From: a virus
Taxonomy: Duplodnaviria > Caudoviricetes
Length of the DNA stretch: 31,448 nucleotides
Virus record (IMG/VR): IMGVR_UViG_3300012971_000060
Coordinates: 1 to 31,448 of that record
Direction: 5' to 3' (one strand)
The position numbers were made by a program, and so were the translations under genes. Position 1 is the first letter of the stretch. The number at the start of each line of letters is the position of its first letter. This document shows positions 3,697 through 29,932 of this stretch, piece after piece. Below the pieces are notes generated by a model. It ran no database searches. It was not told the origin of the DNA and saw nothing but the letters and a program-made list of their open reading frames with translations.

Positions 3697-6636
3697 TTAC
3701 TTCGGTCGCAGTTGCCATTCGCCATTCGGCATCGTGCCCCACTGGAATTTATTCGGGTCAGGATTCTTGAACGGCGGGACCTTGCCACGATAGTTCGGGT
3801 CGACTGTGGGTGGCTGTGCTGGCGCAGCTGTCGTGCCGGTCGTCGCTGGTGGTTGCGGCGTTGCTGGCGTTGTGGTCTGTGGCGTTGCTGGCGCTGCTGT
3901 AGCTGGCGCTGTCGGCATTGTTGACTGCAAAAGATCGTTGGCGAATTTAATCGCGCCGAGTTCTTCATCATTCGGTGTCGCTGTTGGATCGTTTCGTTGA
4001 CGAGTACGAAAGTTAGTCATTAACTGAGCAGCTGCACCTTGTCGCGCACGTAACAGTGCATCATATCCACGCTGCATGATGTTATTGTCGCTCATCATTT
4101 TACGCACATTCATCGCATCGCGACGCTGATCGACGGTGTTGGCGTTGCGAAGGTTACGCCCGTCTTCCTTCATTCTTTCGATGTCCATTTTTTGTTCGGG
4201 CGTTTGCTTAGTTACGTTCCTTTCTTGAATGTTACGAAATTCTTTCGCGGCCGTGATATCGCGCTGCATCAGCTGACGTTCATAGTTCGCACGCTGGCGC
4301 GTCTGACTCGCCCACGGAAACATGTTATTAGCTTCTTCTGCCCGACGCTGGGCTGCTTCGCGCGAATAAGGATCGAGCGGTGCGTTGGAAGTCGGCTGAT
4401 TTTGCTGGGTTGGTTGACCTTGTTGGGTCGTCGGTTGACCTTGTTGGGTTGTTGGCGCGCTTGTCGTTGGCGCACCTGTTGTTGGCGCACCTTGTCGTGT
4501 CGTCAGTCCACGATAAGGATCGTAATAGATCGATGAATTATCCGGCGTGTTGCCAAAGCCAGTTCCACGTCCGGGAATATTGCCAAACTGTGCTTGCGAT
4601 CCAGCTATTTGCGCTCTTTGATCCGTCGTACCATAAGGATATGCCGTCCGTGAAGTCGCAGGTGGCGGAGTGGTGATGGGAATGCCACCCGGTGTCGTGC
4701 GCTCACCACCAGCACCGGTCGTTGCTGCAGCAGGCGCCGCAGTCGTGACTTCTCCCGGTGCACCCTGCGAACCGGTCAGCTGCGCAAATTTTTTCTCGAT
4801 TCCTTCTTGCGCCGCGATATCGAACACGCTTGAAGGTCCCATGGCGTATTGACTGAACTGCTGCGGGGTCAAACTGAACGTGGTCGCTGGACCGCCATTG
4901 TCAGGCCGCACGATCGCGGTAATGCGTCCATCCTCGGTCTGCACAAAGTCAACGCTACGACCATTCGGAATGAGATTGTTGAGCCGTCCGGCCAGCTGCA
5001 GCGCGGCGCCGTAATCGCCCTGCGATGCGGCTGCAATCATCGCCGCACGTACATTGTCGTAGGAAGGACGCAAGGACTGCACGAAGCGTGAGGCGCCATC
5101 CATGTCGCCATTGGCGACCAGATCATGGAACGCTTTACGAATGGCACCGTTCTGATCGAGCGTCGGATCCGCAGCACTGGTGCGGTTCAAGATATCGGTC
5201 ATCTGCTGGGGCGTGAAACTGCGATCGCCCTTGAGATAATCGTGCAGCGCTTGCTGATCTGTAGGTGCTGCTGCAGTCGGTGCTACAGCCGGCGTCCCAT
5301 CCTGGGTGAGACGCTGAACATATCGTTGTGCGGGTCCGGCAAACAATTGTTGGTGACGTTCTGCGACGCCACGCTCGAAGCTGCCGCCAGATTGAATCGA
5401 TTCTGGCAGTGTCAGTCGTGTCGCCGGTTCTGTGGGCGCAACGGGAACACCAGCACGTGCCAGGGCTGCTTGCTGTTTACGTTCAGCGTCTAGCTGTTCG
5501 GGTGAGTATTGTTCGGCAGCCGGTTCTGCGGCGGCTCTACGCGTCGGAACCGTCGGGAGTTTGCTGGTGTCGCCTTCGATTCGCGGCGGTGCAATTTCGG
5601 TCACCGGTGTCTCCGGTCTTTCGACCGTAGCTGTCGGTGCAGTATAGCCAGGCAGCTTCAACGCGCGACGGGTCCAGTCAAGGACATCGCGCAGAGCTCC
5701 ACCGGGATCCTGCACAATCCGCGCGAGTGGGTCTGCTTGGGTCGGCGTGTATCCGGTCGGCGTCTTGGCGACTTCGGCTTGCGCTCTTATGGCTTCGGCC
5801 TCACGATCGGTCTGATCGGTCGGTTCGGCATTATATCCTGTGCGCTGCGGCGGCGGCTGCGGCTGGCCGGCGACTTGATACGGCGGCGCGGTCTCGATGT
5901 CCTCTTCGTCGGCTTCGACGGGACGCGGACGCGGGGTCGGGACTTCCTCTTCCTCTTGCTGTGGAGGAGGCTCTTCTTTCTCTTGCTGTTGCGATGGCGG
6001 TGGCGGCGGCGGCGGCTGCTCTGGCTCTACTTCGTGTGTTGGAGGTAAGAATCGACTTTCACCTTGTTCAACCGGATATGCAGTATCGTAATCGACCTCT
6101 TGCTGTGAGATAAGTCCTTCATCATTATCCTCAACTTCGCCACCTCTCTGGTAACCAGTCCGACGCACCGCTCCGCCTTTGCAATACGCGAATTCCTCGG
6201 GCACCTGCGGCGCTCCAGCTGGACGCGTCGACAAGGCCTCGGCATCCTCGACAGCGTGCTGCGGATTATGTCGGCGTGAATCGAGCGCGGCGGACATCGC
6301 CAGCGGTCCTGCCGCCGTGGTGCCGCTGTCGCTGGTGCTGGCGCTGCTGCTTCCGCCTTCGCCATAGACCGGACCGCCATAGGCATACGCGGCGGCCGGA
6401 ACGCCGCGTTTCATGTAGCCGGTGACTGGCGCATCGATCCATTTGCGCAATTTCGTGCGCCGTGGACCCGTTCGTGCGAGAGGTTTACCAAGCTTGCGGT
6501 TCTTCTTGCGGCTTTGTACTTGACCACGCACCGCACCACCTCGCTGATAACCTTCATCAGGTGCAGGAGGTTCTTCTACCGGTGCTGTCTGTCCTGGCAC
6601 TGCAGCTTGATAGCCAGTAGGAGAATATCTAGCCAT
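3697..6636 (-). CDS. Large low-complexity internal virion (ejection-type) protein, about 979 aa
   Basis: Long ORF rich in P/T/Q/E. Preferred start is ATG 6636 (MARYSP), which overlaps the upstream TAG. Contains repeated YxxGGxV and TGY motifs. Position is typical of podovirus ejection proteins. Confidence 0.6.
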   Translation of the reverse strand: MARYSPTGYQAAVPGQTAPVEEPPAPDEGYQRGGAVRGQVQSRKKNRKLGKPLARTGPRRTKLRKWIDAPVTGYMKRGVPAAAYAYGGPVYGEGGSSSASTSDSGTTAAGPLAMSAALDSRRHNPQHAVEDAEALSTRPAGAPQVPEEFAYCKGGAVRRTGYQRGGEVEDNDEGLISQQEVDYDTAYPVEQGESRFLPPTHEVEPEQPPPPPPPSQQQEKEEPPPQQEEEEVPTPRPRPVEADEEDIETAPPYQVAGQPQPPPQRTGYNAEPTDQTDREAEAIRAQAEVAKTPTGYTPTQADPLARIVQDPGGALRDVLDWTRRALKLPGYTAPTATVERPETPVTEIAPPRIEGDTSKLPTVPTRRAAAEPAAEQYSPEQLDAERKQQAALARAGVPVAPTEPATRLTLPESIQSGGSFERGVAERHQQLFAGPAQRYVQRLTQDGTPAVAPTAAAPTDQQALHDYLKGDRSFTPQQMTDILNRTSAADPTLDQNGAIRKAFHDLVANGDMDGASRFVQSLRPSYDNVRAAMIAAASQGDYGAALQLAGRLNNLIPNGRSVDFVQTEDGRITAIVRPDNGGPATTFSLTPQQFSQYAMGPSSVFDIAAQEGIEKKFAQLTGSQGAPGEVTTAAPAAATTGAGGERTTPGGIPITTPPPATSRTAYPYGTTDQRAQIAGSQAQFGNIPGRGTGFGNTPDNSSIYYDPYRGLTTRQGAPTTGAPTTSAPTTQQGQPTTQQGQPTQQNQPTSNAPLDPYSREAAQRRAEEANNMFPWASQTRQRANYERQLMQRDITAAKEFRNIQERNVTKQTPEQKMDIERMKEDGRNLRNANTVDQRRDAMNVRKMMSDNNIMQRGYDALLRARQGAAAQLMTNFRTRQRNDPTATPNDEELGAIKFANDLLQSTMPTAPATAAPATPQTTTPATPQPPATTGTTAAPAQPPTVDPNYRGKVPPFKNPDPNKFQWGTMPNGEWQLRPK

Positions 6637-11201: not shown

Positions 11202-11669
11202 TCACCCCATTACATCATCTGATCCTTCGTACATCAACAGATCGCCAGTATTAGCGTTGTTGAAATCGACCCTGGTGAGAACCTTGATTGCAACTTTTTG
11301 CTCCGTATCGTCCGGATTGACGACATGACGGGTTTCGTATTCGCGATTCTCCTCGATCCAATCTGCACGTATATAGCCAGGATTGTGATCTATCCCCTGC
11401 AGCAGCACCGAGCCGCCTCCCGGAATGACCGTGTTGTTGAGTATTGGCGCGCTGTGGGTGATCTGGGTGATGATGTTGTTCATGATGTTGAGCGCGCGGA
11501 TTGCCGATGGCAAATCGACCGCGATCGGAATTGAATTTATATGATGCTGCAGCGAATACGGCCGCGCGAACTGATATGGATCGAGACCCTTCCCGCCGGG
11601 ATGATAGAGCGGTGCATCCGGCGATATGGCGTTGGAGTAGCTGATCGGACACGAGGGAGCATTAGACAC
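11202..11669 (-). CDS. Tail-associated hypothetical protein, paralogue A (APxCPIS family)
   Basis: Motifs APSCPIS, IPIAVDLPSA and ILNN; overlaps the upstream stop. Confidence 0.7.
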   Translation of the reverse strand: MSNAPSCPISYSNAISPDAPLYHPGGKGLDPYQFARPYSLQHHINSIPIAVDLPSAIRALNIMNNIITQITHSAPILNNTVIPGGGSVLLQGIDHNPGYIRADWIEENREYETRHVVNPDDTEQKVAIKVLTRVDFNNANTGDLLMYEGSDDVMG

Positions 11670-13959
11670 CGGCCAACTCCTTCACTGATGTGGCGACCTG
11701 CAAATTCGAGACGTTGATTCTTCCCTCGATCTCGAACGACCACTGCTCGCCCTTGATGCCGGAGAAGATCCGCAGGAGCTCGCCGCTCTTTCGGATCTCG
11801 CGCGTGGTCCAGAGCGCGTCATCAACATAGATCCGCACGATGCCGTACTGATTATTCCCAAGAACCGTCTGTGGAAAGGTCACGTCACGCGCCACCTGCG
11901 GCGGCGTGGTGTCGGGCACCTCGAAGAAGACCCGCATGGCCGCGAAGTTGCGCCGCGCCAACTGCTGATAGGTCTTCGAGCGCCAGATATAGGGCACGAT
12001 GATCGGATGCTGATCGGTGAAGTCGTAGTAATAAATGCCGCCGTTCTGCACCAGCACGCAGATGCCGGTCCAGGCGTCGAGCTCGACGTTGACGATGTCG
12101 AAGCCATTCGGTGTGGTGAGATTATTGTAACCCAATCTATGGCCACCGGCCTGCGGCCAGATCGTGAACGAGGTCTTGTCCTCGGACGAGAGCTCGACGG
12201 TGAAGCCATCACGGATCGGACCGCCGGGGTTACGCACGCCGAAGGCAAAATAGCTGGTCGCGTGCTTGACCGCCCGCACGCGCTGCTGCGGGGTGAGCGA
12301 CTGCCACTTCTCACGCGTGATCCAGCCCTCGGTGACGTTGAGACCAGAGCCGGACTGGCTGATCTGGATGAGGCCGTTCTGACTGACGTACAAGACTGCG
12401 GTGTCGGTGGCGACGATCGACGCCCGGTGCAAGCACGGTTCCGGCAGATTGACCTTGGTCGACGCCATGGATGCCGGATTGACGCCATTGATCATATACG
12501 GCGTGCCCTGCGTACAGACGATGATCGACTGGCCGGCAACGCCGATGCCGACGATGGGAAACTCCGTCGTTAAAACGTATCCAGGCGGCCACGCGTGCGG
12601 CCGGTAGGCTTCGCTGAACCATATTTCGTTCGAGCGGAAGCCGACCGCGATGCCATTGGGAAAGGCGTGGATCGCCTGCATGTCCTCCGGCGGTCCGTAC
12701 CAGTAAAGCGACACCAGCTGCGCGTTGAGCGCGATCACGTCGTCGCCGATATTGTCGACATACGTCCCCTGCGACACCGGGATCTCGGCGACGAGGAAGT
12801 ACGTCCCCATGCCGGACTGGTTGGAGATGGTGCGGTAGATGCGGGTGAAGGCGATGTTGCGATCAGCCGGCTTCATCGTGTTGTCGGCCGGATCGAGCCA
12901 ATCCGCGCCCATATTGCTGGGCGTGGGCTGGAATAGCGAGATGGTCCAGTTCGCGTTCGACCAGCCGTTCACGACCACGGGAGAAGACGGCGGACCTTCC
13001 TCGCCATATGCAGTAACCCAAGTGTAAACATAACCCCTCGCTTCGAAGATCGATGCGCCCAGAAGATTGGCCCAGATCCGATACGTCGCTTGCGGCAGCG
13101 ACACGTTCAATGGATCGGGCGGTGCGTTGGAGTAAGTCGCCGAATAGCCGCGGCTCTTGAGGCTGCTATTGGCGTTCTCCAGATTGTAAGGTGCATCGGT
13201 CATGATACCGACCCAGTAAGTCACGTTCGAGATGACCGACACACCATTAGTAATGACCGACGTATTTGCACTTCCCAAAGCGGCAGGGGTCGACACACCT
13301 TCACCGAGCAGCTGATAGGGCGCGCCGTTGAGATCGCTATAGACCACACCCCTGAAATTGACCGGCGAACCGACGTCATTGGGAGCAAACGACACGCTCT
13401 GGATAATCATCGTTCCCGAAGGAACGATCGGCACGAACAAGATGTAATTGCCGGGGACATACTGGAAGCCGGTGCTGGTCGTAGGATCGACCGTAGGGGC
13501 GCCCAGCGTGATGGTGTCACCGCCGCCATCGACCACCACACCAGGCGGACAGCCAGACGCCGGCACGCCCAGAATCCAATCGTGCTGGTCGTTAAAAATA
13601 CGATCGTAGGTATTGTAGCGCGGCACCGACGAAGGGCTCGCCCAATAGAAACGATCGTACTGATCCTGCACCACCGGCGAATGCATGACCGTGGTGTCGG
13701 GGTCGGCGAACTCGAGCCACTTGGAGTCGCTCGCCGTAATCGCGGTGTTGTTAGTAACCTTGTTGGGGACGCGGTAGACAAACTGCTTGGTGCTATCACG
13801 CAGCCAATGCAACAGCTTGGGCTGGCGCCAACCAATCAGTGAGCCGCTGAACAAATAACAATCGCGGGAGTAAGACGCTTGCCCTTCAGGCAGCAGTCGT
13901 GGATCCCAAGCGGGAAGCTAAAGCATCCCGCCGTACTTATCGAGTTTCAGTGCGGACAT
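11662..13959 (-). CDS. Tail tubular/nozzle (head-stabilisation) protein with an in-frame TAG at codon 14 (13918-13920)
   Basis: Strong SD (GAGAGGAGG) and ATG at 13959 are in frame with the 730-aa ORF, giving MSALKLDKYGGML*LPAWDPRLLPEGQA... Motifs YVYTWVTAYGEEGPPS, RIYRT, EIWFSEAYRPHAWP and WRSK resemble podovirus tail tube B/nozzle proteins. The TTG start at 13854 in the ORF track has no SD. Confidence 0.7.
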
Positions 13960-14435
13960 GGGATGCTACCTCCTCTCTCCAAATATTCTGCGCACCGCCG
14001 AAGACGTCTTGGATCGTCATCCGCACAGCCCAGCGTCAGATTACACGCATGGCAGAGAATACCGCGAAATTCCCCAGTGTTATGGTTGTGGTCGGTGTGC
14101 CACCCCCACTTCGTACCAGGGTCTTTCGCACCACAAATCTTACAAGATTCTCCTTGCTTGACAAATTCTTTTTGCCACTTCTCCATCGGCTCGTTGCCTT
14201 TTCCCGTCAAACCACACAATCGAAGTGCTTTATTTCGACGATGTAGTTTAGTTTTGTCCGGATTCGCTTTACCCCAATTCCGATTGTAATCAGCATGCGC
14301 GGCACGATGCCGTGCAGTAGCAGCAGTAATCACTGCCTTACCATGTTCAGTTCGATAGTATTCCTGACGAACTCCTTTCAGCCTCGCTTTGTGTTTCAGA
14401 TAATACTGTCGATGATATTCCCCATCGTACGTCAT
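13947..14435 (-). CDS. Free-standing endonuclease VII-like (His-Me finger) putative homing endonuclease
   Basis: CKICG...HTDHNHNTGEFRGILCHACNLTLG matches the EndoVII CxxC...DHxH...RGxLCxxCN signature. Basic N-terminus. ATGA overlap with the upstream gene; its 3' end overlaps the tail gene start. Confidence 0.85.
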   Translation of the reverse strand: MTYDGEYHRQYYLKHKARLKGVRQEYYRTEHGKAVITAATARHRAAHADYNRNWGKANPDKTKLHRRNKALRLCGLTGKGNEPMEKWQKEFVKQGESCKICGAKDPGTKWGWHTDHNHNTGEFRGILCHACNLTLGCADDDPRRLRRCAEYLERGGSIPCPH

Positions 14436-14929
14436 TTCATTCTCGTCGTCGTCTTACTCGTCGGATAAACTTCCTGCTGCGACGGATTGGGATGATGCAC
14501 GGTCTCCGTCGTTCCTAACCGCCTGCGCTCCGCTTCTTCGTACCGACGCGTGGCCTCGCGATTGCGCTCTTGCTCTTCGATCGCTCGCGCCACCGCCGCC
14601 TTGCCGGCCTCGACCTCGGCATTGTACGCCCTATCGGCCGCTTCAGTACGGTGATAATTCAAGCTCCAATCGATCTCTTTCGGCTTTCGATCGCGCAGCT
14701 TGCGAATGCGCTCGAGCAACATCTCGCGGGTCTCGCCGTCACGCACGAACCCCACTTGAAAGTCTAGCTGCTGGCTCTCGAGCTCCCGCGCTTTACGTTC
14801 CCGCTCTTCTTGTGCCAGCGCTTCCTGCTGCTTTCGAGCTTCTTCATCTGCTTGCTTTTGTACATGCTCTTCGCGCATCCGTTCCAAACGCTCTTCATGA
14901 TGGCTAATCGAGTCAGGTTTCTTGGCCAT
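14432..14929 (-). CDS. Hypothetical charged coiled-coil protein
   Basis: 165 aa, E/R/K-rich, with SD AGGAGG. Confidence 0.7.
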   Translation of the reverse strand: MAKKPDSISHHEERLERMREEHVQKQADEEARKQQEALAQEERERKARELESQQLDFQVGFVRDGETREMLLERIRKLRDRKPKEIDWSLNYHRTEAADRAYNAEVEAGKAAVARAIEEQERNREATRRYEEAERRRLGTTETVHHPNPSQQEVYPTSKTTTRMK

Positions 14930-22559: not shown

Positions 22560-22937
22560 ATGCCCAAAACAGACGGCAGATTTAGACACGGGTATGCTAC
22601 AAAGAAAAACGAACATCCGCTTTACGCAACTTGGGAAGCTATGCGCTCTCGATGTAACAATCCAAACTCTACGGGCTACGTTGATTATGGCGGTCGCGGC
22701 ATAAAAATATGTGACCGTTGGAATAAATTTGAAAATTTTCTGGCTGATGTCGGTGAGCGTCCACCTAATCATACAGCTGATCGAATCGACACTGATAAAG
22801 ATTATGCTCCTGAAAATTTTCGATGGGCTACCCCCGAAGAACAAGCCCAAAGTAAACGACCAATCCGCACCAAACTCAGTCAATTCAGCACTGCCGAACT
22901 TTTGGTTGAATTGCTGCGTCGAGAAATTCACGGCTGA
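22560..22937 (+). CDS. HNH-family homing endonuclease-like protein, antisense to the operon and possibly degenerate
   Basis: W..MRSRC.NP...YGGRGIKIC.RW..FENFLAD.GERP...DRID...Y.PEN.RWAT..EQ signature; AT-rich. Confidence 0.85.
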   Translation: MPKTDGRFRHGYATKKNEHPLYATWEAMRSRCNNPNSTGYVDYGGRGIKICDRWNKFENFLADVGERPPNHTADRIDTDKDYAPENFRWATPEEQAQSKRPIRTKLSQFSTAELLVELLRREIHG

Positions 22938-29311: not shown

Positions 29312-29932
29312 CTACGCCCTTTTGGAGGGCGTCGGAACGCCCGGATGCTCCTCTGATGGTACGACTGCCACACCCCATCCGGTAGCTGGGGACCAATAAG
29401 TCTTCACGTCCCAATTCTCCAGCACCTCCGGCTTTTCATCCGGTGGACTGCCAGGCGGTGGGAGTTCGATCGGATGCGTAGGAACCCCAGGCACCCCGCT
29501 GCTCGGTGGGATATAAATCGGATGCTCTGGTTTCCCACCGGGAAGCGTTCCAGGCGGCAAATAAATTGGTGGAGTTGGCATCGGCACGCCACCGCCGCCC
29601 CAGATGCCGAGCGGAGGCTGCGGCAGTGGGTAACCGATTTGCGGAGGTGCCCCACCCCAAATTCCAGGAGGTGGTCCGCCGGGCGCGATTGGATGCCCCA
29701 TGATTGGAAGATTGCCACCGCCCCAGATGCCGAGCGGAGGCTGCGGCAGTGGGTAACCGATCTGTGGAGGAGCGCCGCCCCAAATTCCGGGAGGCGGACC
29801 GCCGGGTGCAATTGGATGTCCCATGACCGGCAAGTTGCCACCGCCCCAGATGCCGAGCGGTGGTTGCGGCAATGGATAGCCGACGCTCAACCCCGGATCG
29901 ATGATCGTAATCAATGCCAGATGTGTAGGCAT
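29312..29932 (-). CDS. Pro/Gly-rich repeat protein
   Basis: SD AGGAG; GIWGG and HPI repeats; C-terminal WSPATGW. Confidence 0.75.
   Translation of the reverse strand: MPTHLALITIIDPGLSVGYPLPQPPLGIWGGGNLPVMGHPIAPGGPPPGIWGGAPPQIGYPLPQPPLGIWGGGNLPIMGHPIAPGGPPPGIWGGAPPQIGYPLPQPPLGIWGGGGVPMPTPPIYLPPGTLPGGKPEHPIYIPPSSGVPGVPTHPIELPPPGSPPDEKPEVLENWDVKTYWSPATGWGVAVVPSEEHPGVPTPSKRA
29590..29882. repeat. 123-nt (41-aa) coding tandem repeat, about 2.4 copies
   Basis: cagatgccgagcgg recurs at 29601, 29724 and 29847. Confidence 0.9.

Follow-up and report, generated by a model that had tools for sequence, protein, structure and literature searches.

A UAG codon between matched leucine codons in a podophage tail nozzle gene beside an endonuclease VII cassette: a candidate natural stop-hop

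The bypass of phage T4 gene 60 lies within the element of the MobA homing endonuclease, in which the endonuclease gene is followed by a re-copied homologous region and then by an insert that protects against the adjoining endonuclease (10.1101/2022.08.31.505936). In cyanophage S-PM2, the DHHRN enzyme F-CphI and the group I intron of psbA take part in collaborative homing, and there too an insert protects against the adjoining endonuclease (PMC6083498). Gaps of 10 nucleotides (nt) in the terminase gene carried by Streptomyces phage phiHau3 and of 7 nt in a prophage have also been described, and bypassing was detected by mass spectrometry in E. coli when a stop replaced the hungry codon (PMC10732093). 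The synthetic stop-hops of E. coli, in which 9 nt give one residue, are constructs that operate at a low level (PMC5009743; 10.1101/2024.12.09.627546). According to a 2016 review, some cases of apparent readthrough could be due to in-frame stop hopping, of which it knew no natural occurrence (PMC5009743); our search of the later literature, which left subscription papers largely outside its coverage, found no natural in-frame or 6-nt stop-hop and no case in a nozzle gene. Here we analyse a candidate for such an event in the tail nozzle gene of a Caudoviricetes phage. It lies in a stretch of 31,448 nt (positions 1 to 31,448 of IMG/VR record IMGVR_UViG_3300012971_000060), hereafter the window.

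The stop site and the tail nozzle gene

The site is read from the minus strand of the window. A very strong Shine-Dalgarno (SD) sequence, AGGAGGT (13974-13968), precedes an ATG at 13959 and 13 codons (MSALKLDKYGGML), the last of which is the predicted take-off codon, a leucine CTT (13923-13921; CUU in the transcript). It is followed by the in-frame TAG (13920-13918) and by an identical CTT, the predicted landing codon (13917-13915), after which 751 open codons lead to a TAA at 11662. The SD is the strongest among 81 nozzle alleles and among 22 starts of the window. The body of the nozzle gene (11662-13917, 751 amino acids) has no usable start of its own near its 5′ end; the downstream TTG at 13854 shows no anti-SD pairing (+0.3 kcal/mol). 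An earlier note on this DNA had described this arrangement, with about 750 open codons and a TTG devoid of SD, and each element was located where claimed. The stop flanked by matched leucine codons in the nozzle gene is thus a real observation. The bare motif does not exceed chance: when about 400 kb of phage DNA was read in six frames, identical codons around a stop that is followed by at least 100 open codons were found 32 times, almost always in shadow frames, so that comparison with relatives has to carry the argument.

The gene that carries the stop is, on profile and structural-model evidence, a podophage tail nozzle, the identity proposed in the earlier note. A profile of 62 homologues matches the GP4 chain 8JOV_A (six chains) with an E value of 1e-61, residues 1-61 included. 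The AlphaFold model of relative P0002 (81% identical to the window protein; predicted local distance difference test score, pLDDT, 88) retrieves the tail structures of GP4, SU10, T7 gp12 and P22 gp10 (Foldseek E values of 4e-25 to 3e-8). Cultured relatives are distant, 38% identical at best, and are Rhizobium phages. Tail nozzles are essential. Close to the amino terminus, the spacing of the motif GG-x-x-P-x-W is unchanged in 241 of the 280 homologous proteins of at least 500 amino acids. One of the others (P0123) has two extra residues; the gene calls of 11 begin at the Met of GGM, those of two at the next Leu and those of 25 further downstream; in the 62 aligned homologues G11, P14 and W16 are invariant. 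Since 241 of the 242 proteins that show the motif keep its spacing and read GG-x-L-P-x-W, with GGMLPAW in relatives as had been anticipated, CUU-UAG-CUU corresponds to an exact 6-nt insertion. The inserted sequence can be parsed equally well as GCTT-TA-GCTT, a duplication of 4 base pairs (bp) plus TA.

The insertion, for which the earlier note had proposed confirmation in raw reads, was found in assembled contigs of three sequencing runs. Logan contigs of runs X1 (depth 11.6) and X3 (depth 7.6) span the site with no difference, and that of run X5 (depth 10.3) spans it with no indel and with one other letter somewhere in 2150 nt. X1 and X3 are possible source runs of the window and X5 shares its sample with such runs, so these contigs exclude a single-assembly error and are not independent replication. 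Runs X6, X7 and X8 contain the phage without coverage of the site, X4 and X9 yielded relatives only, and no RNA run was listed among those containing the phage. The insert-bearing form is the consensus allele in several runs. The strain in run X7, whose contigs do not cover the insert, differs from the window at nine positions of the nozzle gene, all synonymous (9/9); substitutions of this kind show, as far as codon comparison tells, that the nozzle gene is under purifying selection. No other in-frame stop or frameshift relative to relatives was identified in the real genes of the window or of genome G006.

UAG is an ordinary stop codon in this phage, as the earlier note had stated: it ends 4 of the 27 window genes. 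No tRNA with a CUA anticodon was found in the window or in G001, G002 (30 of 45 kb), G006, G007, G008 and G010, the host and about 20 kb of the window's longer contig lying outside this coverage. A general reassignment of TAG or a phage-encoded amber suppressor was rejected on these two grounds. G006 (C1:30356-30531) and G007 (about 33251-33483) have two tandem tRNA-Glu(CUC)-like genes that ARAGORN left unassigned and in which position 33 is C in place of U. They were discarded as amber suppressors, as they read as Glu(CUC) and are present with and without the insert.

Several homologues, among them the 25 that start further downstream, could not be tied to DNA. P0131 starts with MPAWD and is a possible third case of the insert; P0140/P0251/P0252, P0047, P0071 and P0090 are called from starts just after the motif and may hide inserts. 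Locus L077 (4703-6800) has a nozzle gene with four stops and a change of frame in mid-gene relative to P0002, possibly a low-quality or broken copy.

A second insert-bearing lineage and the endonuclease VII cassette

The same insertion was expected in an independent genome, and one was found. The nozzle gene of locus L070, whose protein is 43% identical to that of the window, reads MAPIKIQQFGGML, then a stop, then LPAWDTT (DNA: ATG TTG TAG TTG CCC). The position of the insertion and the stop codon are those of the window, and the leucine codons match within each allele and differ between alleles: CUU as take-off and landing codon in the window, UUG in L070. The L070-type allele is present on further contigs of about 64 kb, where the gene calls P0248 and P0244 start after the stop. 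The window and L070 alleles each have a close relative without the insert. Either one old insert was kept while both leucine codons changed together, or one site was hit twice; the tree of endonuclease VII (EndoVII) proteins has 0 starred branches and does not tell one origin from two. Two leucine codons would match by chance with a probability of about 0.22 per allele. The covariation fits hopping without proving it, because an origin by duplication would match the codons automatically. L070 was found among 80 viral loci kept out of 582 confirmed stretches, from 38 of 64 scan parts. Pattern scans gave, in turn, 0 matches, 29 metagenome matches in which the only nozzle was the window's own contig (L020), and 8 and 11 viral matches in which the only nozzle was the contig of L070. 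The patterns require particular neighbouring residues, so that they miss alleles in a different context, as well as frameshifts that do not fall within the Met-Pro gap.

Both insert-bearing nozzle genes are directly preceded by an EndoVII gene, which the earlier note had missed. In the window this free-standing gene (13947-14435, minus strand, 162 amino acids; PF02945, E value 2e-18) overlaps the nozzle start. A conserved gene of 165 amino acids lies upstream (14432-14929, minus strand); its stop overlaps the endonuclease start (ATGA), and where relatives lack the endonuclease, this gene adjoins or overlaps the start of the nozzle gene. The spacing of the C, D, H, R and N residues in the window protein (C, D+17, H, R+9, N+17), compared by hand, equals that of F-CphI (C84/D101/H102/R110/N118), and the enzyme is predicted to be a homing endonuclease of the DHHRN family.

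We examined 153 loci, of which 129 were mapped; 14 were dropped as not being nozzles and 10 were nozzles with intact-looking 5′ ends missed by the regular expression. The mapped loci represent 83 distinct alleles. EndoVII lies directly upstream in 8 of them and is absent there from 73, and 2 are too short to tell. EndoVII is thus an optional gene (8/83 alleles) between two conserved ones. The stop insert was found in 2 of the 8 EndoVII-linked alleles and in none of the 73 without EndoVII (Fisher p 0.009). When the window, chosen for its insert, is left out, the insert is present in one of seven linked alleles (p 0.09); counting also the +1 insertion of L072 gives two of seven (p 0.007). L072 (about 4000-4010 in G008), likewise EndoVII-linked, has a very strong SD and one extra T in the motif (CAG TTT C GGC GGG ATG); this is either a candidate +1 frameshift site at UUU_C, where CGG would occupy the A site, or the result of a homopolymer error. 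In the ranking of SD strength among the 81 alleles, the disrupted ones hold places 1, 2 and 6, and the intact EndoVII-linked ones 7, 28, 29, 44 and 45.

The nozzle 5′ end appears to travel with the cassette. Between L070 and its sister without insert, L205, identity is 96% and 99% in the outer flanks and 89% in the 3′ portion of the upstream gene; it falls to 52% across the endonucleases, which are two different ones, and is 77% across the initial 260 nt of the nozzle gene. Changes between them are four synonymous and no replacement before the stop, and 19 synonymous and one replacement in the next 33 codons. For the window, the comparison is a contig of run X8, assigned to an 87%-identical relative by inference from depth, in which the upstream gene joins the nozzle gene directly, without endonuclease and without insert. 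The first 13 nozzle codons of the window (13921-13959, minus strand) are synonymously recoded relative to this endonuclease-less relative: 9 of the 10 non-Met codons before the site differ, all synonymously (counted by hand), and at least 30 nt after the site are identical. This pattern has p values of about 0.002 and 0.006 at a codon divergence of 40%. At the level of sequence, these comparisons show that the insert, EndoVII and a recoded nozzle 5′ end are linked in both alleles, and the upstream cassette best explains the existence of the insert.

EndoVII genes are found at many gene junctions of this phage group, which is rich in endonucleases (six in G006, three in G007 and three in G010), and no second stop insert was found in the other EndoVII-adjacent genes seen in G006, G007, G008 and G010. 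A further endonuclease open reading frame (ORF), of the HNH type, lies at 22560-22937 of the window on the plus strand, opposite to all structural genes.

Proposed mechanism, alternatives and neighbouring interruptions

We consider it moderately probable, from the comparison of alleles, that peptidyl-tRNA-Leu hops over the UAG to give a normal nozzle and that the insert shields the gene from the neighbouring EndoVII. With UAG awaiting decoding in the A site, the peptidyl-tRNA would detach from the first leucine codon and re-pair with the identical codon 6 nt further on, yielding a nozzle that reads GGMLPAW. The endonuclease would cut nozzle 5′ ends lacking the cassette and so spread, and the insert would spoil the cleavage target in its own genome. 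A stop may be favoured over a sense codon for two reasons: its slow decoding would drive hopping, and additional residues are not tolerated in the motif. Even infrequent hopping could be enough, as a virion requires only six nozzles and the gene has an unusually strong ribosome-binding site. We infer hop, cleavage and protection alike. A broader proposal is more tentative, and we give it somewhat less than an even chance: that this is a natural obligatory in-frame stop-hop, the smallest possible bypass, for an essential virion protein, favoured by selection as immunity to the DHHRN homing endonuclease that the phage itself encodes, and one of a set of micro-inserts (the 6-nt Leu-UAG-Leu and the +1 at UUU_C in L072) that do in translation what introns do in collaborative homing.

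Two RNA structures could bear on such a hop. The earlier note had placed the stop at the apex of a hairpin (13909-13932, minus strand). Its arms are there and the stop of the window is at the apex, but the structure appears not to be conserved: the L070 version is a stem of only 6 bp with two G-U pairs, and the outer stem is also present in L012, an allele without insert, since it lies in sequence coding for Gly-Gly...Pro. A role of this hairpin as key stimulator is not supported. It is mutually exclusive with a long 5′ hairpin (13922-13967, minus strand) extending from the SD spacer to the take-off codon, which has a z of -2.5 in the window (rank 3 of 83 alleles), -0.9 in L070 (rank 26 of 83) and +0.4 in its sister L205. 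By analogy, it could act like the 5′ stem-loop of T4 that pushes the ribosome forward, and is a lead only.

Several observations weigh against a protective stop-hop. The T4 stimulators are missing or doubtful: the apex hairpin appears not to be conserved, the 5′ hairpin is predicted to be strong only in the window, and the nascent chain is only 13 residues long at the stop, so that a signal of the T4 nascent-peptide type cannot exist. Unstimulated stop-hopping is low-level. CUU_U is described in the 2016 review as a strongly +1-shifty site (PMC5009743), and in the window a +1 shift there leads into a dead frame of 27 codons that would drain ribosomes. Duplication alone yields matched codons with no need of hopping. 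Five of the eight EndoVII-linked alleles have no disruption, and this, together with the many other junctions occupied by EndoVII genes, leaves the enzyme's target at the nozzle unproven. The pattern scans of viral and metagenome contigs might have revealed further insert alleles, yet only two lineages were found.

One further point against hopping, the protein P0123, bears directly on an alternative that we regard as unlikely, namely readthrough of the UAG by a near-cognate tRNA or a suppressor tRNA of the host. The nozzle would then gain two residues (GGML-X-LPAW), and the matched codons would be only a by-product of duplication. P0123 belongs to the same 90% cluster and reads GGML-S-LPAW, with Ser at the position of the stop; it would show that two more residues can exist, in a segment (about residues 7-17) that is mostly coil in the AlphaFold model of the relative. 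A sense codon at this position, which the earlier note had counted against its own proposal, occurs in P0123 only. We weigh it as weak because P0123 was assembled at the protein level and its C-terminus is chimeric; its Ser codon is one base from TAG, and the Ser-bearing form appeared in no contig or pattern scan. No other length variant exists among the 242 proteins, and sense insertions, if tolerated, should outnumber those of TAG. The normal use of TAG as a stop and the lack of a CUA tRNA in the DNA covered (from which the host is absent) also speak against readthrough. Less likely still, both alleles may be dead, carrying endonuclease or transposon scars (4-bp duplication plus TA); the phages or prophages concerned would then be defective and would persist in lysogens or through complementation. 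The G-Leu-TA-G-Leu shape fits such a footprint, two of five relatives encode integrases, and the synonymous changes may predate the insertion. Decay of this kind would, however, have had to hit the same codon with the same stop in two distant lineages. Moreover, the insert form is the consensus in several runs with no other decay seen, the SDs are the strongest of the family, and no close prophage was found among GTDB genomes (two distant matches).

Termination at UAG with re-initiation just downstream, which would give a nozzle without its first 12-13 residues, appears improbable. The landing UUG of L070 can serve as a start codon and shows weak anti-SD pairing (-5.0), and split nozzles exist in other podophages. 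In the window, however, CUU is the landing codon and no SD precedes the next TTG, so re-initiation fits L070 only. The product would lack the N-terminal strand together with the invariant Gly, a part whose conservation reaches as far as GP4 8JOV_A (residues 1-61), whereas published nozzle splits fall between large domains. We give least credit to removal of the six bases at the RNA level, by polymerase skipping or guided excision, or to an assembly artefact. One predicted fold leaves the stop in a bulge, the sequences on either side of it being paired with the SD region. Against removal, no intron family matches at the site and, by inspection, no placement of the 6 nt fits the U...G junction of group I introns, on which ground an intron remnant at the stop was also rejected; against an artefact, the contigs of three runs and a second genome agree.

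Other genes of the window and its relatives are interrupted or unusual. The major capsid gene of the window is split by a probable group I intron of 686 nt (26069-25384, minus strand). The last nucleotide of exon 1 (26177-26070) is U and that of the intron is G; the intron contains a LAGLIDADG ORF (25953-25426), and no Rfam match was obtained for it; the relative L045 reads GFIP-EIWS unbroken at the junction. Capsid interruptions at other positions are present in G003, G004 and G005. A proline/glycine-rich repeat protein with a threefold GYPLPQPPLGIWGGG unit is encoded at 29312-29932 (minus strand).

Comparison with known systems

If the favoured mechanism is true, ribosomes can skip 6 nt efficiently enough to supply an essential protein with none of the stimulators of T4. 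Very small stop inserts would then offer homing endonucleases an inexpensive means of immunity, and such genes would be being truncated in gene calling, as in P0001, P0244 and P0248. What the window newly provides is a second, co-varying pair of matched codons. Podophage nozzles such as GP4 (8JOV_A), SU10, T7 gp12 and P22 gp10 share the fold and the N-terminal motif with the gene studied here, and none was found in print with an in-frame stop of this kind.

The likeness to T4 gene 60 and MobA lies in take-off and landing codons that match (CUU/CUU in the window, UUG/UUG in L070), in a stop, UAG in both alleles, directly on the 3′ side of the codon for take-off, and in an adjacent free-standing endonuclease that moves with a re-copied 5′ region. 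The T4 gap is 20-50 nt, whereas here it is 6 nt and in frame; the codons are for Gly/Asp in the large subunit of topoisomerase II there and for Leu in a virion nozzle here; the T4 enzymes are of the HNH, GIY-YIG or VSR types and not EndoVII/DHHRN. T4 uses a nascent-peptide signal located 25-30 residues before take-off, while only 13 codons precede the stop here, and no conserved take-off stem-loop or mini-SD is apparent at this site. The phiHau3 terminase resembles our case in that an essential phage gene bears a short insert at a junction that does not vary. It differs in its rare UUA trigger, its change of frame and its proposed regulatory role, and no link to an endonuclease was seen in its description (PMC10732093). 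The synthetic stop-hops of E. coli have an identical geometry, matched codons around one stop, in constructs there and in natural alleles known from sequence here.

F-CphI is likewise a free-standing enzyme with the EndoVII motif and the same active-site spacing, beside a gene whose insertion blocks self-cleavage, a protection that is presumed here. Its protective insert is a self-splicing intron removed from the RNA, whereas the 6 nt of the nozzle gene would be handled in translation. By analogy, the window cassette would work like the T4 mobA/gene 60 pair and like the collaborative homing of F-CphI, without being a member of the gene 60 family, from which gap size, host gene, enzyme and peptide signal set it apart.

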